A stretch of 63,717 nt of DNA, filler included, from Globobulimina sp. (taxonomy: Eukaryota): NCBI GenBank assembly GCA_003354225.1. It is 15 parts of 15 records of this genome, joined end to end, with 100 filler letters (N's around TTAATTAATTAA, not from the genome) between each part and the next. Parts side by side here need not be neighbours in the genome. Positions count along the whole stretch, not along the records: positions 42,565 to 46,717 come from PIVH01001551.1; 14 more parts are not named here. One strand, written 5' to 3'. Every line of letters starts with the position of its first letter. Within the stretch, counting starts at the first letter, position 1. Under the pieces are notes generated by a model that saw only the letters and a program-made list of their open reading frames with translations, ran no database searches and was not told the origin of the DNA. A program made the translations under genes and the position numbers. Positions 42,465-51,776 of the stretch are shown piece by piece.

Positions 42465-42564
42465 NNNNNNNNNNNNNNNNNNNNNNNNNNNNNNNNNNNN
42501 NNNNNNNNTTAATTAATTAANNNNNNNNNNNNNNNNNNNNNNNNNNNNNNNNNNNNNNNNNNNN

Positions 42565-45500
42565 ATGGATTTCTGTATTGTATTCACAGTCTGGTTTAAT
42601 AAATGAATTTAATATTTGTACATTATTATTGATTCGTTGATTGTGATTTTGTTTACATTTACTGATAATTTGATCCAACTGATATTGAATCGTTGTGGAT
42701 TGATTGGTATTGTGATTGCGAGGGGCTATGGGTAATAATTCATCGGATTTACTGTATCTAAATAATGATTCAACGATAGAAATATCACATTTTAAAGCGG
42801 AAACTTTTGTAGCTGCATTAAATAATTGAGGTGTTCGCAGACCACATCCACCACGCTTCATAGTGATAGGTAGTTGAATATTAAGTGTCGGATTGTATGT
42901 TAGTAAGTTAGTAATTGACTTATTTATAAATGTATATATAAACTGTATCTGATCAATCCAGCGATCAATTTTGCGGGTATTCTTCAGGTGATATATGATT
43001 TTATTATAATTAAAAAATCGATTATAAATCAAAAATTTAATTTGCGTATCATTAATCATTTCTATATTCATTATTTTATGCTGTAATTGGATAAAATACT
43101 TATCCATTTTATCAATAATAAATTGATCAACGCCGTGGGCAACGCCAAGAAACTGGATATTGCCCTCAAAATTGAGCTTATATTCACCAAAATGCGTTTT
43201 TAAGTATGAGATAATTTCTGTATTTTGTGTGTTTGTGATTATGTGTGTTTTATCTCTATTTAATTCTATATCCCATTGCGCATATTCATCTTCTAATATT
43301 TCAAAATATGGTTTTAAAAAAGTAAAGTTAAGGCACATCAGGCCATCATCAACATAGTCAGATTGGAAATGTATATCAAAAGCCGGCTGTATAGCAATCA
43401 TACGCTTTTCAGTGTTTGTCAAAATTTGAGTTTTTCCAGCACAGTATAAAAACATTGAGGACCATAAGCCTTGGATAGTACCGGAGGTCATTTCAATGTG
43501 ATGATTCCAATCAAAATCAATGCCATTGTCATGGCCATATAAGAATTTATAGTAATTGACCAAATCAGGTATCTTTTCACAGCATAAATCATACTGTTTC
43601 TGCCGACTGACTGAGTTGAAAGCGTTTTTTGCATCACTATTTATCATGACCTCACCCTGCAATTCAGTTAATAGTTGCAAGGCCATATCGGTTGATATCG
43701 TGCCAATCTCGCAGCAGTCTTTAATACCAATTAACTGATACGGTCCCATTATCTGACGCTGTGTATTGGTGGGTATATTGTGCATTATTACACTATCAAT
43801 TAAGCGCATTATAGAGGGAAGGATATTGATGGGGCGAATGTCATAATCTGGTATATCATATTTCGCCTTTCCTAATGGTATCCCGCGGCCATATGTCAAG
43901 AAACGCGCAACCTCAAATGGCAGCCCATTGGTAACCAATTCTTTACATAACTGATGCACCATATCGGCAAAGCAATATTTTGCCTCATTATCAGCTAAAT
44001 ATACCAATAATTTGTTGTCCATACCAAATTTTCCCGGCGCACTTTTAGTATTTAGATTCATTATAATTTGAGTTATTGATTTTACTTTTAGGCGAAAAAC
44101 ATTTTTTGGTTCGTTTTGAAGATATGTGATTGGCGATTTTTGTGGATATTTGGATTGGAGTTTGGCATAATTACCATTAATATTTAAGTCCGCAATAATA
44201 CAGTCATTCAAAGCTCTGTCTGCTTTTTTAATATATCCTTGTTTCGCATATTTGAGACATTGCTTGGATCTGCGGATGATTTCATCTTTTTTATCATAAT
44301 TGCCATATTTTATTATATCAATATTATTATTTAAATGATCTAAGTTAATATCGCCAGTTATTGAATGTATGATATTTTTATAGTTAATAAAATTGAGAGC
44401 GGCGTTATTTGATTGGTTCATATCACTGTTATGAGTGGAATTGGCATTTTGATTGGATGTATTTGGTATATTTTGATTGTTTGTGTTGATCAAGTTATTT
44501 TTTCCATATTTCTCTTTAACTTTTCTATCCTTTTTGCGGTTTCTTTTATTCTGTTCATACTCAATTCTGCTGACCAATGCCCCCCATTTTTTGGATCTAT
44601 ATAGATTTTCGCGAATCGAGATTTCTTTCTTTTTAGCAGCTGTATCAACAGATCTATTGGTAAGGAAATGATAGGTCGGTGCATATAAAGCTAATTCAAC
44701 ACATGCGTCAATCGCAGCAGCTTTATTTTTGTTTGCATATCGAATTTTGGTTAGTGCATTGATAATGATCCTGCCAACTCTGTCTTTTTGCTCATCACTG
44801 TACAGATTGACATTGGTATCCCAGTATCTAAGCGCCAGCCGGGAGTCAAACTCCTCATTATTACCATCTAAGATAACAAAATCTGAGATGATATCATTAT
44901 TATGCAAGATATCACTATGGATATCATTATCGGGATTATTATGCAAAAAATCAGCATGCTGTTGTTGCAAATCAAACTCATATTTATGCAGCTCACACAG
45001 TGTATTATTCAAACCAATTAATGTGTGGCAGGATTCCTGGTCACAATATTTGCGAGCGGTGGCAATCAGATACTGCTCATTGGGATGTTTATCATTATGA
45101 TTTCTCCAATGTTTGTATGCACCTTTGCCCCAATACTCATCTTTATGTTTATGGCAGTTTGTAACGCAGCCTTTAAATACAATGGTATATTCGCGTTTGA
45201 GTGTTTGCTGTGTGGTTTTATTTTTCCCCGTCCACTTTTCCTTCCCTGTCTGTGTACAAGATTGGCATATGTACTGTGTGATATATTTGCTTATGCCGGG
45301 ATTTAATAGGTAGTTATAGCCAGACTGCTCTTTAATATGTTCAACACAATGACATTTTGCGCACGTCCAACTGGATCGAATTTGCCAATCCAAATTTGTT
45401 TCTGAATCAATTTCTTCTTTTTCGGAACTTTTGTTTTCAGAAACGTTTCTGAAAAAACTGCTGGGTGACTTTTGAGTGTCTCGAATATCAGCAACTTCAC

Positions 45501-46717
45501 TCTCCTCATCACCTCCGGTGTCGACATTTGGATCATGGGTCCGTTGTGGTAGTAGCAGCTCAGCTACAGCGGAGCCAATCGCTTCAGTCACAACCGCATC
45601 AGTCACCATCGCATCAGCCATGATAATGTCACTCGCAACCATCGGGTATATAACATTCGGCGAAATTACAGGAAATGACGGGCATTCATTCAATATATGA
45701 ATCGCGGGATTACGCAAATTCGGAGATGAATAAATATCAGTTTTATAGCCGCGGCGCGATCCAGTCGAGCCACAATTGGCCAATATATCTGCTGTAGTAT
45801 TTATGGCAATATTGCAATGACCGCCAGTCCAATATATGTGAAGTCCGAATGAGTCAAACTGGTGCAACGCTGGTTTGACCCATGCAAATAATGAGGGATG
45901 TGCTCTGATGGTCCATTTATCAGTCAACATATTAACGGACCATTGGCTATCTGAGAAGATATATATTGGCGGCTTACGATCAGTTATAAAGCGCCGCTGT
46001 AAAGGCTGAATAATATGAACTTGGCCACCTTCTCCAGCCAACCATGCCATAGCTACGCCAATGGCAAATAATTCCGCTGCATTATTACCATGCTTACCAA
46101 TGGCAGCCACAATTTGCGTGCAGCTCGAAGAGGATTTACCAGCCATTATAACAGCACCGCTACCCGCCGGGCCAGGATTGCTTTTACTTGCTCCATCCGT
46201 AGCAATCACGACGGCAAATTCAGGTATATCTGCCCATATTTTCTTAAATTCATCTCTAACTAATTGCTTTTGTTGGTGCGTTCTATTTTTGGCATTGCCA
46301 TATTTAGAACGACTATTTTTAGGTCGCATTGGAGGTGAATGGGGAGAGTTGATAGTTTGGGTCCGTGCAAGTGCGAATTCGCGCGGATTTGTAGTGGGTA
46401 AATGAGTCGAAGTGGGAGAGGAATGAGACGATGCCGTAGCAGACTGAGCGGCATCTACGGTGGCTTTCGGCTCATTATTGCCATGTAAATGAGTCGAATT
46501 GGAGGAAGAATGAGGTAATGTCGTAGTATATGTAACGGCATCTATGGTGGCCTCCGGCTCATTATTGGCACGTAAATGAGTCGAATTGGAGGAAGAATGA
46601 AGCGATGTCGTAGCATATTGAGCGGCATCTACGGTGGCTTTCGGCTCATTATTGCCATGTAAATGAGTCGAATTGGAGGAAGAATGAGGTAATGTCGTAG
46701 TATATGTAACGGCATCT
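42565..46717 (-). mobile_element. Non-LTR retrotransposon ORF (RNase H, Zn fingers, CRE-like reverse transcriptase), truncated at both ends
   Basis: RNase HI motifs TDGASKSNPGPAG, NNAAELFAI, SDSQ, GH...N..AD.LA; RT motifs SAPG, RPINI, DAKNAFNSVSR, GTIQG, YVDD, FLGV.HG, LP...GGCGL. One open frame spans the whole contig. Confidence 0.92.
46398..46717 (-). repeat. 87-bp tandem repeat (about 3.7 units, alternating A/B variants) encoding 29-aa repeats in the retroelement frame
   Basis: Units start at 46398, 46485, 46572 and 46659; no stops in the RT frame (..DAVTYTTTLPHSSSNSTHLHGNNEPKATV..). Confidence 0.92.
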
Positions 46718-47038
46718 NNNNNNNNNNNNNNNNNNNNNNNNNNNNNNNNNNNNNNNNNNNNTTAATTAATTAANNNNNNNNNNNNNNNNNNNNNNNNNNN
46801 NNNNNNNNNNNNNNNNNGCCCAGCCTCGACTGATAAAGGTAAAAATAATATAGGTTTGCCTTCGTTTCTCAGAAACAATAATCTGACGCTGAAAACCGGA
46901 TGCTCTTTAGATACACATAATCCACGAGCTGTAACATTATTAGATTTATGGGCACCTTTAAAAACAGATTTTTTCTGTTTAAACTTTAAAAGCAGATTTT
47001 TACGATAAAGTAACTTTTTTAAAATAAAAACTATTTCC

Positions 47039-48322
47039 ATGGCTTTCTTCCTCTGTATTTTGCTGGGTTTATATGCCAAAACAAGCACAACCACTCAATT
47101 ACCAAAAATGAGCATTTGGCTTCATCCAAATCCAAATTTGGTTCCTTTTATATCATCAAATCAATCGATATTCCATCAGCAAAATTGGGAAAACCTTATG
47201 GATGATTGGCAAATACGAATAAAGTCAACAAAGTCCGTGAATGAGCTGTACAGAAACATAACTGATATGTACTTCATAATTACTTCAGAATATCCGTTTG
47301 ATTTAAATTGTTTCCACGAGCAAAGTATTTCATTATTATACAGAATTGCTTTACATCATTTTTACAGTGCTCTTGGTTCTGTTTCTGACCTATCTCAAAG
47401 AGAGTGCATCACTTTAATGCATAACATGATAGACACAAACATTCAAATGGGCATTAATTTGGATGTTCATGTTTGGAACACATTTTTCGGTGTTTTTTAT
47501 TCGCTCAATAATGAATTTGGTGACACAGCTTTCTGTCAGTTATTAAAGGAAATGAAACGGAATGGAAGCAATGCCCAACCAAATATTGATACTTTTAATG
47601 TGATTTTAAATGGAATTGCTGCGAATAACGGAATTGTTAATGCTGAAAAAATGGCGTATCTAATTATAAGAAATAAAACGATGTCGCATGGAATTGAACC
47701 AAATCGAGTAAGTTTCACAATTTTAATGTCAATCTTTGCGAAAAATCAAGAGTGCATTAAAGCGACTCGTTTGTTTTTGGATCATTTCGCAACAAACAAC
47801 GCAAACAATGCATATGTTGACAGTATGTCATATTATTACAAGTTATCATTCTTTGCTGCTGATATTAATAAATTCAATGCTGTTTTCACAGATTTATTGG
47901 ATCATTATTCTCTTCATAACAATATTCAATTTGTTGTAAAATTCATGATAAAAAGCGTTATGAGACCTTACCATATTAAACCAGATAAAGATACATATTT
48001 ATTGTTGACATATCTCAGTTATCGGAATACTAAAATTCGCCATATTTTGCGCAGTATTCCACCATCTGATTCATCGGAAAATCCGTATGATCGGATTGTA
48101 TTTAGATTGCACCAAACAGCAAAGGGAAAAAACACCACTGGATATAGGAATTATATATCATTGATACCAAAATCAATGAGAGATGATAAGATGCCTCAAA
48201 CTCCGGATGCATTAAGAAAATTAAACAAAAAACCCTGTGCCTGGAGAAACCAGCTGCGTGCATGGAGAAGAAAATTGCACCAATTTGATAACTTGACTAC
48301 GATAACTGAACTGAGGAAATAA
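47039..48322 (+). CDS. PPR-repeat protein with C-terminal SLBP (histone mRNA stem-loop binding) domain
   Basis: P-type PPR motifs (DVHVWNTFF, PNIDTFNVIL, PNRVSFTILM, PDKDTY); C-terminal R..Q..KGKNT.GY.NY...IPK..R....PQTP...W..QLRAWRRKLHQFD. Confidence 0.85.
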   Translation: MAFFLCILLGLYAKTSTTTQLPKMSIWLHPNPNLVPFISSNQSIFHQQNWENLMDDWQIRIKSTKSVNELYRNITDMYFIITSEYPFDLNCFHEQSISLLYRIALHHFYSALGSVSDLSQRECITLMHNMIDTNIQMGINLDVHVWNTFFGVFYSLNNEFGDTAFCQLLKEMKRNGSNAQPNIDTFNVILNGIAANNGIVNAEKMAYLIIRNKTMSHGIEPNRVSFTILMSIFAKNQECIKATRLFLDHFATNNANNAYVDSMSYYYKLSFFAADINKFNAVFTDLLDHYSLHNNIQFVVKFMIKSVMRPYHIKPDKDTYLLLTYLSYRNTKIRHILRSIPPSDSSENPYDRIVFRLHQTAKGKNTTGYRNYISLIPKSMRDDKMPQTPDALRKLNKKPCAWRNQLRAWRRKLHQFDNLTTITELRK

Positions 48323-48360
48323 TCGATACACTGGCAGCTTGTATAAAAACGTTTTTTATC

Positions 48361-49464
48361 ATGGCAATCCGCCGCACCTTCAAACGACACACTCAACTAT
48401 TTAACAGTACGCACCATCATTATAAATCACTAACTCGTTTTTCCTCCACAAACGCGTCATCCTCGGAAATAATTTACGTAAACCCGCGCCATGCACAAGA
48501 TGGATACGAGATTGTAAACTGCAAATTTAAACCAACGATACCAGCGTTGGGCTTTGGTACTTGGGGTTGTGACCATTTCTCCTCTGAATTGATCGCAAAA
48601 TCCGTCGATATTGCACTAAAAACCGGCTATAAACACTTAGATTGTGGCCGGGTCCATGCGAATGAAAAGGAAATCGGTGCAGTTATTGCGGATCATTTGG
48701 AGTCCGGTCGTATAGACCGACAGGATTTATTTGTAACGTCCAAACTATTTAACAACGAACATGCACCGCCAGATGGCGCACCATTACGTGCATTGGAAAC
48801 GACATTAAAAGATTTGAAATTGGATTACTTGGATGCATTTCTGATAAATTGGCCGTTTAGAAATTCAATACATACTCCTCCATTAGCCTTTAATTTGGAT
48901 ACTTGGTTTTTTACTTATAAGTTATTGCACGAGTTCATGTTACAAGGCATGACGCGGAGTGTTGGAGTATGCAATTCGAGCATACATAAAATGAAAGGAT
49001 TGATCCATTTATGTGAGAAATATAAAGTATCGAAGCCTGGTATTTTGCAAATTGAATTGCATCCGTACTTGCAACAGGAAAATATATTGCAATTTTGCGA
49101 GGATGAGGACATTATTGTTACTGCTGCGATGCCGTTAGGTTCGCCAGAGAGGCCAGACCGATGTAAGCGGGATAATGATCCAATGGTTTTGGAGGATGGT
49201 GTATTGAAAGCGATTGCAAATGAAATTGGACACTCTGTGGCTCAGATTATAATCAGATGGCATTTGCAAAAAGGCGTGGTTTGTATTCCAAAAGCAACCG
49301 AAGAATGGATGATTGTGGAAAACTTTGAGAGTTTGAATTTTCGATTGAGTCAGGAACACATGGAGAGGATAAATGCATTGGATAAGCATTATAGGTTTGA
49401 GAGAGGTGAAGTGTTTCGGTGGAAAGAAAATCAAGCTTGGCAGGAATTGTTTGATAACGAATGA
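48361..49464 (+). CDS. Aldo-keto reductase family protein with mitochondrial-presequence-like N-terminus
   Basis: IPALGFGTW, GYKHLDC, LFVTSKL, LKLDYLD, QIELHPYLQQ, AQIIIRWHLQKG..CIPK. Confidence 0.92.
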   Translation: MAIRRTFKRHTQLFNSTHHHYKSLTRFSSTNASSSEIIYVNPRHAQDGYEIVNCKFKPTIPALGFGTWGCDHFSSELIAKSVDIALKTGYKHLDCGRVHANEKEIGAVIADHLESGRIDRQDLFVTSKLFNNEHAPPDGAPLRALETTLKDLKLDYLDAFLINWPFRNSIHTPPLAFNLDTWFFTYKLLHEFMLQGMTRSVGVCNSSIHKMKGLIHLCEKYKVSKPGILQIELHPYLQQENILQFCEDEDIIVTAAMPLGSPERPDRCKRDNDPMVLEDGVLKAIANEIGHSVAQIIIRWHLQKGVVCIPKATEEWMIVENFESLNFRLSQEHMERINALDKHYRFERGEVFRWKENQAWQELFDNE

Positions 49465-49617
49465 ATACATAATATCGTAAATACAAGATTGTAATGCATG
49501 CAATAATTGACTGACATCAATACTTGCTTTGAATATTCAGACTCTGATTCAGAAACAGTTTTACTTCCATGACCAACAACACAAAACTGTGAAGTTACAC
49601 TAGTATAAGATTAAAAC

Positions 49618-50583
49618 ATGGCAGTTAATCATGAAGATGACCGTACAATATTTGATATTAAAATTGATGGGTTATGGAACAATGCAAAAAGACGTAACTT
49701 CATTGAAAGAATCGAAATTCATTTTGTATTGAAAGTAGCGAAAATAAAACAGAAAAGAATTCACATCGATATCATACTTCCTCATTGTCCAACATCACAA
49801 TTACGTAAAAAGAAATTTCTATTATTAGTGGATGATAAATTACTGAAAGAAACAAAAAATGTGATCAAGGAATATTCAAATCAATTATACGTCGAAAAAG
49901 AAAGAAAATCAAAAATTTTAATCCAGCAATATATCGAAAACATAATGGATAAGGAAAGCTTCTCTTCATTCCATTCATTGTTTGAAACTAACATTGAATG
50001 CTTATGTTTTGATTATTACTGCGATAAACAATATGAAATCGATAAAATGTGCCGGAATTCAATGAATTATTTGGGAATTGGATATAAAACGTTTGATGAT
50101 TTAAAAAAAATAAATAAAGATAGAAAAATTGTGAAACGAATGTTTAACTGTGCTGATAAAATATTTTGTTCATACAATATAATCCGTCAAATCCCGAGAT
50201 TATTGGGACCGACATTGGGCAAAATGGAGAAATTTCCGTCTGTAATCAAAGCAAATCAATATGGTAATTTGAGAGAAATATTGGATATAAATAGGCAACA
50301 AATTAGCATAAATTATAGGATAAAAAGCGACTGTAAATTCGCTACAATATCATGTTGCATTGGTGATATTAATATGGATAAAAAAGACGTGATTGATAAT
50401 ATTATGGGTATCATTTGTGGCATGTTGCAAAGTGTTAATATGAAATGGCATTTGGTTCATACAGTCAATGTGAAACGAACAATGGGTAAAAGTATTCGGA
50501 TCTACAGTCATAAAGATATTGTATCGAGATATGAGATACCAAAATTAATGAAACAATACAAAAGAAAACTAAATCAGTATTGA
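49618..50583 (+). CDS. Divergent ribosomal protein uL1 (RPL10A)-like protein
   Basis: KRRNFIE.IE...LK, LPH.P, DDLKKINKDRKIVK, IIRQIPRLLGPTLGKMEKFP, KRTMGKS; longer than canonical uL1. Confidence 0.8.
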   Translation: MAVNHEDDRTIFDIKIDGLWNNAKRRNFIERIEIHFVLKVAKIKQKRIHIDIILPHCPTSQLRKKKFLLLVDDKLLKETKNVIKEYSNQLYVEKERKSKILIQQYIENIMDKESFSSFHSLFETNIECLCFDYYCDKQYEIDKMCRNSMNYLGIGYKTFDDLKKINKDRKIVKRMFNCADKIFCSYNIIRQIPRLLGPTLGKMEKFPSVIKANQYGNLREILDINRQQISINYRIKSDCKFATISCCIGDINMDKKDVIDNIMGIICGMLQSVNMKWHLVHTVNVKRTMGKSIRIYSHKDIVSRYEIPKLMKQYKRKLNQY

Positions 50584-50874
50584 TATGAGTAGCAATATAA
50601 TGATCTGACAGCAAAAACTAATGCTATCCGAAAGGACACACTTTAATTCTAACTGCAAGGACACATTAAATGTTTGTAATGAGAGAAAATATATGTTGGA
50701 TTTAGACGCTATGTCTATGCGCTTTTTTACTATGGTCAGTTTAATATAATTAAGGGAACTGAAAATAGTAAGATTCAATAAACTTGTTTTTAGTCTGAAA
50801 TAGCAACTAAATAGTTGCGCGGCAACTATTTAGGAAACCTAGGCTCTTTTCATAGCCAAAACTGCCGGACAATA

Positions 50875-50957
50875 TGCGCCATTAAGGATTCCATAAGAAA
50901 ATTGAAAATTGTTAGCGCCATTAAGGATTCCATAAAAAGAAATTTTCGGATTCCATA
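50875..50957. repeat. Short direct repeats GCGCCATTAAGGATTCCATAA (two copies plus a partial) near the contig end
   Basis: Copies near 50876 and 50915; partial GGATTCCATAA near 50948. Confidence 0.7.
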
Positions 50958-51776
50958 AAAAACTAACTTNNNNNNNNNNNNNNNNNNNNNNNNNNNNNNN
51001 NNNNNNNNNNNNNTTAATTAATTAANNNNNNNNNNNNNNNNNNNNNNNNNNNNNNNNNNNNNNNNNNNNTAATATATGACGGCTTTCTTCTCTCATTATC
51101 GCCGCCTTAATATATGACGGGATTCTGTATATATATATTCAATCATTTTCTGCATTGTTTCCTTTTCTTTTAGTTTTGGCATCTTTTAAAAGGGGTTTCG
51201 ACCTTTTGTAAAAAGTGCAAGACTTCTCGAACTGAGCTGTTTGACAGAGTTTTTTAAAAATCAGTACTTATCGGAGAGCTCTATTGGTGCAGACCAAATA
51301 GTGCGGACTAATGTAGTAAGGCTTCTAGAACCACTACTGTGTGCGGGCTCGAAAGTGCGATGTAATAGGTGCGCACCATTTTACAATATGATAGCACTCA
51401 TTTTTTAACATAGTGTGCCTCGATTAGATTACACTTTATGGATCGCACTCGTATTGTAAAATGATGCGCATCTATAGTGGCTCTAGAAAAAAACCGCTTG
51501 TGAGATATCACTGTAACAAAGTTTTCACTTTTATAATCTTTTTTAAGACATTTTATGTTGTTCGAAAAGCATCGTTCCTAATCCTACGTAACGCGTTTGT
51601 CGACGAATCTTATAATCGATTAGTTATCAAACATGGATTGCTCCATCAAAATCGAACCGACAACAAAGTATGAGAAATAGACAAATTCAAATCTAACTGG
51701 TTGCGTTCTAATACTATAGATATAAGTATAACCAGTTGGAATCTAAAATATGTTCATGCATCAAAATTAATTATAG

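Follow-up and report, generated by a model that had tools for sequence, protein, structure and literature searches.

Does a contig of the Globobulimina sp. assembly GCA_003354225.1 (PIVH01001551.1) carry a genuine non-LTR retrotransposon in which RNase H precedes the reverse transcriptase (RT) and, if so, to which lineage does that element belong? The contig lies in a window of 63,717 nt, that is, the whole stretch of DNA analysed, in which 15 contigs of ~4150 bp each are strung together via artificial spacers. In agreement with the first-pass annotation, positions 42565-46717 make up one complete assembly contig of 4153 bp; it is flanked on both sides by such joiners (N44-TTAATTAATTAA-N44), so that nothing beyond these limits counts as a genomic neighbor. 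Our reading, to which we assign a probability of about 0.8, is that this contig holds an assembly-limited copy of a non-LTR retrotransposon of the restriction-like endonuclease (RLE) type, belonging to a very divergent family in which a sub-lineage has an RNase H1-type domain fused ahead of the fingers. The RLE type is inferred from relatives, because the endonuclease lies off the contig, as do the element ends, the poly(A) or other 3' end, the target-site duplications and the target.

The open frame and its N-terminal region

The minus-strand frame starting at 46716 comprises 1383 stop-free codons (protein P0001) and is open at both contig ends, whereas the remaining two minus-strand frames contain stops throughout. 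The unbroken frame of more than 1380 codons announced by the first-pass annotation is therefore real, and the positions of repeats, Pfam matches and motifs also sustain the domain order proposed there, namely repeats, RNase H, Cys/His fingers and RT (Table 1). Rfam scans of the contig at E<=1 and of the whole window at gathering thresholds returned no HDV-like ribozyme, U2, rRNA or tRNA. Similarly, Pfam gave no match to the APE endonuclease (Exo_endo_phos) either in P0001, whose frame is open at the 5' end, or in the family members scanned.

Table 1. Features of the contig in window coordinates; residue numbers refer to P0001.
Feature	Coordinates	Strand	Remarks
Whole contig, P0001 frame	42565..46717	-	Incomplete element copy; both element ends (5' and 3'), the endonuclease and the target site lie beyond the contig
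87-bp tandem repeats, 3.7 copies	46398..46717	-	In frame as 29-aa repeats
Met130, candidate start codon	46327..46329	-	8 codons ahead of conserved 'KYG..RT' leader of RNase H module
RNase H, RNase H1/PF00075 type, residues 168-316	45769..46215	-	Pfam PF00075
Acidic/low-complexity linker, RNase H to fingers	45376..45768	-	Weakly conserved
Cys/His region, residues about 448-585	44962..45375	-	Three modules
Conserved helical domain upstream of RT, residues 608-720	44557..44895	-	BLASTP to P0002, E 3e-11
RT: N-terminal extension, fingers, palm, thumb, residues 800-1325	42742..44319	-	Motifs, model, relatives
Start of linker toward CCHC + RLE	42566..42741	-	Cut by contig end

The repeat block has a higher-order unit of 174 bp (93% matches) and represents either a 5' UTR/promoter-like repeat or an unconstrained N-terminal extension. 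Indeed, the 129 open codons that precede Met130, the earliest in-frame Met of P0001, look unconstrained; all 10 ATGs of this upstream stretch are out of frame. The sample also contains at least one further diverged copy of the element, about 88-89% identical in two pieces, which differs from the contig in the repeat region by 23 nt, resulting in 17 amino acid changes over 73 codons without any stop. Stand-alone RNase H homologs begin just ahead of the same leader motif that follows Met130 in the contig. However, this second copy has Thr at the Met130 position, which leaves the start of the protein unsettled. In the thumb, 12 listed nucleotide changes between the two copies translate into 3 amino acid changes over 54 codons, that is, most of them are silent. 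On indirect evidence, recent activity of the element is plausible, considering its intact catalytic residues, the second diverged copy and these mostly silent thumb differences.

Reverse transcriptase, relatives and the endonuclease end

The C-terminal half of P0001 displays the RT signatures SDAKNAFN at residue 1027 (motif A, with D1028), YVDD at 1121-1124 (motif C, 43345-43356) and GGCGL at 1289 in the thumb. Across 13 family members, the columns of D1028, Q1082 and G1083 are invariant and those of D1123, D1124 and K1156 nearly so. P0001 was nonetheless unmatched by Pfam RVT_1 at E<=1, so its RT is identified from relatives, motifs and fold. The RVT_1 cut-off of 29.6 bits was also missed by all 10 family members scanned, with P0002, P0003 and P0012 scoring 26-28 bits. 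The predicted model of residues 590-1383 has a pLDDT of 83.5 and a pTM of 0.84, and the helical domain upstream of the RT consists of high-confidence helices in it. Foldseek searches with this model ranked LINE-1 ORF2p first to seventh (E 5.5e-15 to 1.5e-13) and R2 eighth to fourteenth (E 2.7e-13 to 1e-9), thus placing LINE-1 slightly above R2, and then retrieved the HCV NS5B polymerase and group II intron RTs. A 27-sequence family profile run against solved structures recovered R2Tg only (E 4.6e-7 and 6.2e-7; 31.5 bits), with LINE-1 absent at E<=10, while a profile built from just 13 sequences retrieved no RT from the PDB; single outgroup proteins match R2 at 1e-11 to 1e-16. By motif content and predicted fold, which is nearer to LINE RTs than to those of retroviruses, telomerase or group II introns, the RT is a very divergent member of the non-LTR (LINE) class, with its putative catalytic Asp residues intact. 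As a lead only, the ESM Atlas places the RT part near generic RVT_1 clusters, the nearest of which are eukaryotic, with Bacillariophyta the commonest taxon.

At E<=1e-3, 840 library proteins match, mostly as short pieces, and 44 of them do so at E<=1e-30; the closest long relatives are P0005, P0006 and P0007 (31-38% identity). A word-indexed protein search with the RT part yielded P0002 as its single match, and the corresponding profile search two distant matches; metagenome contigs gave four short, distant loci (25-27% identity), which were left out of the later analysis, and viral contigs no related loci. The family occurs in AT-rich and some GC-rich eukaryotes, and its members share a layout of variable N-terminus, three Cys/His modules, helical domain, RT, and CCHC plus RLE. 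Alignments to P0005 and P0007 extend to P0001 residues 1375-1376, and both proteins run ~270-280 residues past that point, including CCHC, RH(D/N) and PGD motifs; C-terminal CxxC..H..C, RH(N/D) and PGD motifs are found in P0002, P0005, P0006 and P0007. In the predicted model of P0005, residues 35-1005 align with R2, reaching the point where the R2 chain stops (Z 21.1, rmsd 6.0, 731 residues aligned), but the alignment with LINE-1 extends no further than about residue 750-808 (Z 20.4, 536 aligned), although the Z-scores for R2 and LINE-1 are less than 1 apart. The CCHC and restriction-like endonuclease ending anticipated by the first-pass annotation thus exists in close relatives, collinear with R2, and the contig stops before it. 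Collectively, the Foldseek matches, the P0005-R2 alignment, the R2Tg profile match and the C-terminal motifs of the relatives corroborate an early-branching non-LTR retroelement of the RLE kind.

A long intact frame with conserved catalytic residues, on a contig where no element ends are visible, would also befit a host gene of retroelement origin that has been domesticated and no longer moves, that is, an RT-RNase H fusion with a cellular role. We consider this very unlikely, since the same sample contains the further diverged copy, the 5' tandem-repeat block is present, many divergent relatives retain the endonuclease, and databases contain the family only patchily and in fragments.

The RNase H domain and its junction with the fingers

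P0001 matched PF00075 with 35.3 bits (cut-off 25.8) over profile positions 3-139 of 141, whereas PF13456 (RVT_3) remained unmatched at E<=1. Leader and tail included, the conserved RNase H module spans residues 130 to 330, approximately (45727-46329). Residues D174, E215, D256, H300 and D310 fall within motifs conserved across all the RNase H relatives fetched; only D174 and E215 are visible in the alignment to solved RNases H, and we take the five to be the D-E-D-H-D set on the basis of these motifs and of the distance from H to D, which in E. coli RNase HI is 10 residues. The acidic catalytic positions reported from the first inspection are therefore present within conserved motifs, their roles being assigned by analogy with E. 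coli RNase HI. The proposed cellular type of the domain is equally borne out by the PF00075 assignment, by its grouping with stand-alone RNase H proteins and by a leader segment common to the contig and a canonical HBD+RNase H1 protein. A stand-alone RNase H+HRDC family was also seen; like the host RNase H1 or another LINE, it is a candidate source of the domain. The ESM Atlas returned generic RNase H clusters only for this part, the nearest being viral-labelled, which we regard as a lead only.

Downstream of this domain, the linker holds a 15-bp tandem repeat (45576-45617) and leads to Cys/His modules of the forms CxxC...CxxC, C...C...H...H and C...C...CxxH. The family consensus retains their Cys and His columns, and on sequence grounds these modules are presumed to be nucleic-acid- or target-binding fingers. 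It is at this junction that an artefact would have arisen if the contig were a chimera, formed for instance in amplified DNA, of a host RNase H gene and a retroelement devoid of RNase H. The assembly is indeed highly fragmented, the contig is found in only one run of the sample, and the RNase H module is similar to stand-alone RNase H proteins, N-terminal leader included. Furthermore, one Logan contig departs from the element at 45461, in the interval between RNase H and fingers; it may correspond to a 5'-truncated or RNase H-less copy. However, the frame is in phase across the junction and open over its 1383 codons, and Logan unitigs of run X1 tile positions 42565-46509, junction included, without a break, albeit from the same sample and data as the assembly; runs X2 and X3 of that sample contain almost none of the contig. 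In two other database proteins, P0038 (336 aa) and P0094 (300 aa), 36-40% identical, the same Cys/His module comes after an RNase H, and the RNase H tree groups the contig with both in one starred clade (support 96/86 with P0038, and 95/98 for the five-row clade). Because the RNase H-to-Cys/His order recurs in these proteins, the junction is not a mis-join of the two halves, an outcome that the first-pass annotation had named as fatal to its claim of RNase H and RT in that order within one frame. The chimera is hence the least credible of the alternatives and close to refuted.

In a word-indexed search of proteins of 760-2421 aa, a query combining RNase H and fingers retrieved no full-length RNase H-bearing relative, nor any full-length protein that unites RNase H with RLE. 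RNase H is not present in P0002, P0006, P0007 and P0012, and most family members are without it, which implies that the domain was gained inside this family.

Lineage, proposed mechanism and comparison with known systems

MoTeR and Cnl1 insert into telomeric repeats. The first-pass annotation favored a place for the element near these and other members of the CRE clade (CRE1/2, SLACS, CZAR), which would make it site-specific for spliced-leader genes or telomeres and a recipient of RNase H. We find this assignment doubtful, although some observations speak for it: the family is RLE-type with N-terminal fingers, and its RT stands at a much greater distance from R2 and LINE-1 (31.5 bits to R2Tg) than do other RLE-type relatives, which fits early branching. 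As described in excerpts of PMC12278014, CRE elements have an RT, an RLE and one or two structures resembling zinc fingers, together with internal repeat regions, to which the tandem-repeat block of the contig is a parallel. Compared by description alone, CRE elements thus resemble the family in RT plus RLE, zinc-finger-like structures, repeats and an early-branching, very divergent RT, but no RNase H is described for them in those excerpts (PMC12278014). In addition, Rfam returned no matches in the contig, and the motif resemblances to CRE named in the first-pass annotation are putative.

The AT-rich, gene-dense host is presumably unlike oomycetes, which matters for another candidate lineage. 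RNase H encoded upstream of RT has been published for oomycete Utopia families (Kojima & Jurka 2015; PMC4640811, in excerpts), so the architecture as such is not undescribed, and the possibly undescribed lineage of the first-pass annotation is overstated in this respect. According to these excerpts, Utopia elements combine one to three N-terminal zinc fingers, RT, and a C-terminal zinc finger plus RLE, and inhabit Amoebozoa, SAR and Opisthokonta (PMC4640811). They are thus like the contig and its relatives in gross layout, that is, RLE-type, with one ORF, N-terminal zinc fingers and an RNase H upstream of RT that was gained within the lineage. An element belonging to the Utopia/NeSL lineage, with this known architecture simply inherited, is nevertheless improbable. 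The excerpted text describes the Utopia RNase H as archaeal-like, with Arg instead of the conserved His, and the domain as confined to oomycete Utopia (PMC4640811), whereas the contig, from its AT-rich and gene-dense host, has His300 at the Arg position and an RNase H1/PF00075-type domain. Moreover, RNase H was gained within the contig's own family, whose RT scores below the RVT_1 cut-off, a further difference from Utopia. U2 snRNA had no match in the contig or the whole window, a weak argument since element ends and flanks are absent. The difference in RNase H type, archaeal-like versus RNase H1-type, suggests a separate capture. In open-access text, no RLE-type element with an upstream RNase H other than Utopia was found, although Repbase or supplements (PMC4640811, PMC5348765) could hold others. 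Going beyond our main reading, we tentatively propose, at somewhat less than even odds, an unnamed deep protist RLE clade with an RT missed by RVT_1, in which a sub-lineage independently captured a eukaryotic RNase H1-type domain with its leader at the N-terminus, in convergence with Utopia but from a different kind of RNase H.

Enzymatic activity, target specificity and mobility are properties that we only infer for this element. Its protein would bind its own RNA, the fingers and the RLE would recognize and nick a target, probably a specific one, and the RT would copy the RNA starting at the nick through target-primed reverse transcription. Built-in RNase H would then strip the RNA from the RNA:cDNA hybrid, so that second-strand synthesis could proceed. 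R2-type elements lack RNase H and clear the RNA strand by other means; for RLE-type LINEs, the way in which template RNA is removed ahead of second-strand synthesis is still debated. If true, a second independent fusion of RNase H ahead of the fingers would mean that this function has been repeatedly selected and can occupy different places within the protein. A large, very divergent RT family that standard domain models miss also matters for the annotation of protist transposons.

RLE-type LINEs (R2 and kin) are the earliest-branching LINEs and are in development as site-specific gene-insertion tools; to our knowledge, they normally lack RNase H. By family profile, R2 (R2Bm and R2Tg; 8gh6, 9dou, 9nl2 and 9nl3) provides the closest solved proteins; collinearity of R2 with P0005, one of the relatives, begins at the N-terminal extension of the RT and continues through the C-terminal endonuclease, although structural alignments to R2 reach only 12-16% identity. 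N-terminal zinc fingers are common to R2 and the contig's family, and the R2 ORF, like the contig's frame, is open upstream of any ATG. In contrast to the contig, R2 has no RNase H; a 28S rDNA target and a Myb domain are further traits of R2. The Globobulimina protein, if it does represent a second independent lineage, would be a natural R2-like protein with a built-in RNase H available for comparison. Type-1 RNase H is otherwise a feature of APE-type LINEs such as I, Ingi, Tad1, Loa, R1, plant L1 and others. These elements resemble the contig in combining type-1 RNase H and RT in one polyprotein, as exemplified by P0149 (APE-RT-RNase H), but they carry an APE endonuclease and their RNase H follows the RT, whereas in the contig it precedes both fingers and RT, with no APE.

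Domain order of the element frame

The element on the contig at 42565-46717 is an assembly-truncated non-LTR retrotransposon of the restriction-like endonuclease (RLE) type, belongs to a very divergent family and carries an in-frame N-terminal RNase H1-type domain; judged from its sequence, it is probably active or recently active. On the minus strand, a frame read from 46716 (P0001) contains no stop over 1383 codons, both contig ends being open; another minus-strand frame of the same contig is crowded with stops. The first-pass annotation had described an unbroken frame with repeats, RNase H, Cys/His fingers and reverse transcriptase (RT) in that order, which P0001, the PF00075 match and the motifs bear out (see table). 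The RNase H residues D174, E215, D256, H300 and D310 fall in motifs kept in all RNase H relatives retrieved. At 45576-45617, the RNase H-to-finger linker holds a 15-bp tandem repeat (2.8 copies) encoding in frame a short Asp/Ala/Val/Thr-rich peptide repeat.

Features of the element frame (P0001 residue numbers) and of the window around its contig
Feature	Position	Detail
Tandem repeat	start of frame	87 bp x 3.7 copies, read as 29-aa repeats
First in-frame Met	residue 130	
RNase H	residues 168-316	PF00075, 35.3 bits vs cut-off 25.8
Acidic linker	between RNase H and Cys/His region	
Cys/His region	about residues 448-585	
Helical domain	between Cys/His region and RT	kept across family
RT	motif A D1028; YVDD 1121-1124; GGCGL at 1289	
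Spacers flanking element contig	42465-42564 and 46718-46817	
Three unbroken genes, one strand	47039-50583 (contig 46818-50969)	PPR+SLBP-domain protein, aldo-keto reductase, ORF without assignment; spacing 38 bp and 153 bp

A second, diverged copy from the same sample differs over 46293-46509 at 23 nt, changing 17 of 73 codons without introducing a stop and converting Met130 to Thr, whereas the thumb piece has 19 differences, and the 12 of them that were listed change only 3 of 54 codons. This disparity indicates purifying selection on the RT, but the codons ahead of residue 130, with zero in-frame and ten out-of-frame ATGs, appear unconstrained as protein. The 87-bp repeats may be 5' UTR or promoter; alternatively, they may form a disordered N-terminus that extends a frame starting off the contig. 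At 46563, inside these repeats, one contig diverges 5' of the element, running on for 52 nt of G-rich sequence unrelated to it, a loose end that may be the 5' junction of another copy. A family member of 1395 aa, P0017, has an additional ~600 N-terminal residues in which the Cys/His module apparently occurs once more; within this family, domain gain seems to concentrate at the N-terminus.

The window consists of 15 size-sorted contigs of 4148-4159 bp joined by N44-TTAATTAATTAA-N44 spacers, and the element coordinates match exactly one of them. Genes on either side in the window are therefore not genomic neighbours, any gene-neighbourhood finding spanning a spacer would be an artefact, and the element ends, target site and copy context are unreadable from the window. 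The remaining contigs contain tightly packed, unbroken eukaryotic genes (PPR proteins, Rad17, SLBP, protein kinase, aldo-keto reductase), a 38-bp gap between successive ORFs being seen once, and G+C is 29-40% over the 15 contigs. The host is a eukaryote with an AT-rich, gene-dense genome. Seen from the three-gene contig (46818-50969), this genome is unusually compact and apparently intron-poor.

Class of the reverse transcriptase and endonuclease

Pfam RVT_1 did not match P0001 at E<=1 and its cut-off was reached by none of 10 family members scanned, three of which came near (26-28 bits vs 29.6), so that the RT assignment rests on relatives, catalytic columns, fold and family profile. A full library scan with residues 160-1359 retrieved 840 proteins at E<=1e-3, of which 44 reached E<=1e-30, and the family alignment revealed D1028, N1031, A1032, R1038, Q1082 and G1083 as invariant and D1123, D1124 and K1156 as near-invariant. 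All nine more distant relatives in the scan clear the RVT_1 cut-off (42-83 bits), with no APE domain in any of them; two of the nine matched R2 best among solved structures (1e-11 to 1e-16), with LINE-1 ORF2p second. With 26 relatives as input, AlphaFold gave a confident model of residues 590-1383 (pLDDT 83.5, pTM 0.84), and its best 14 Foldseek matches were all LINE-1 ORF2p or R2, with HCV polymerase and group II intron RTs below them. Searched against solved structures, a 27-sequence family profile recovered R2Tg only (E 4.6e-7), with no LINE-1 at E<=10; a thinner, 13-sequence profile found nothing.

The contig ends ~60 residues past the RT thumb. The closest long relatives, P0005, P0006 and P0007 (31-38% identity) and P0002 (31%), run on into a CxxC...H...C motif, an RH(N/D) motif and a PGD...D.x.N segment. 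The P0005 model (pLDDT 86.7) aligns with R2 over residues 35-1005, up to the R2 chain ends (Z 21.1, rmsd 6.0, 731 residues), but with LINE-1 ORF2p just to about residue 750-808 (Z 20.4, 536 residues). Since the Z-scores are tied, the contrast lies in alignment extent. The C-terminal motifs and this predicted structure place the family in the R2-like RLE type. For the window's own copy, we infer the RLE type from these relatives.

Reality and origin of the RNase H fusion

The first-pass annotation had named mis-joined RNase H and RT halves as one possible objection. Logan unitigs from X1, the sole run with the contig, tile it unbroken, yet they derive from the same sample as the assembly. The junction recurs, however, in two related library proteins. 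P0038 (336 aa) is about 40% identical and takes in leader, RNase H, tail and the opening CxxC of the fingers; in P0094 (300 aa, 36% identical) two finger modules come after the RNase H. At the sequence level this supports the fusion independently of the assembly sample. In an unrooted tree of 23 RNase H domains from a careful search, the window's domain is sister to that of P0038 (96/86), and a five-row clade (95/98) unites these two with P0094 and two short fragments, which shows a diversified sub-lineage of RNase H carriers. A Logan contig from X1 follows the element as far as 45461, within the RNase H-to-finger linker, and continues on the 5' side with 120 nt of unrelated sequence; it may be a 5'-truncated copy plus flank, or an RNase H-less variant.

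Among relatives with complete N-termini, P0006 and P0007 matched no Pfam family at E<=0.01 and P0002 and P0012 had no RNase H match; P0117, P0058 and P0050 were also counted as RNase H-less by reading the sequences alone. In an RT tree of 31 rows from a quick search, with P0003 left out because it nearly duplicates P0002, the element clusters with P0005 (84) within a subclade (91) containing the RNase H-less elements. This nesting argues for gain of the RNase H inside the family, repeated loss being much less likely.

Homology exceeds the Pfam domain: together with a leader ('KYG.A..RT..Q..LV') and a tail, it covers about 200 residues. The same module occurs in six stand-alone proteins without RT (P0052, P0072, P0077, P0082, P0127 and P0140), in the canonical eukaryotic RNase H1 P0134, whose N-terminus carries the hybrid-binding domain PF01693, and C-terminally in the LINE-type proteins P0149 (APE-RT-RNase H), P0146, P0148 and P0153. 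P0052 also bears an HRDC domain and shares with P0077, P0082 and P0127 a C-terminal '..QSP..IL' ending; stand-alones with this ending look like a host gene family, and the group of six is not known to match a described RNase H family. The window's module matches P0052 (E 8.5e-44) and P0038 (E 6.5e-44) equally well. Capture from a host RNase H1-like gene is the simplest reading, not a proven one, as the RNase H tree is unrooted.

Comparison with known elements

A non-LTR element of the RLE type with an N-terminal RNase H stands, from R2-like fold and relatives, as first annotated; the suggestion of an undescribed lineage fares less well, as the architecture is already published. Oomycete Utopia, a NeSL-clade element inserted in U2 snRNA genes, likewise has RNase H ahead of RT in an RLE-type LINE, a position its authors termed unique (PMC4640811), and a later study confirmed it (PMC5348765). 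In open-access article text, only the Utopia papers were found for RLE-type elements with upstream RNase H. The likeness to CRE elements is real, and the element is at most a candidate member of that clade; CRE elements are described as combining RT and RLE with internal repeats and zinc-finger-like structures, but no RNase H (PMC12278014). Utopia's RNase H is of an archaeal-like type in which Arg takes the place of the His (PMC4640811), whereas the element keeps this residue as His300 and its domain matches PF00075 but not PF13456. Because the RNase H types differ, the element's domain is best read as a second acquisition, independent of Utopia's. The RNase H-before-RT layout is thus already known from Utopia, and what is new here is its RNase H1-type version, not a new kind of element.
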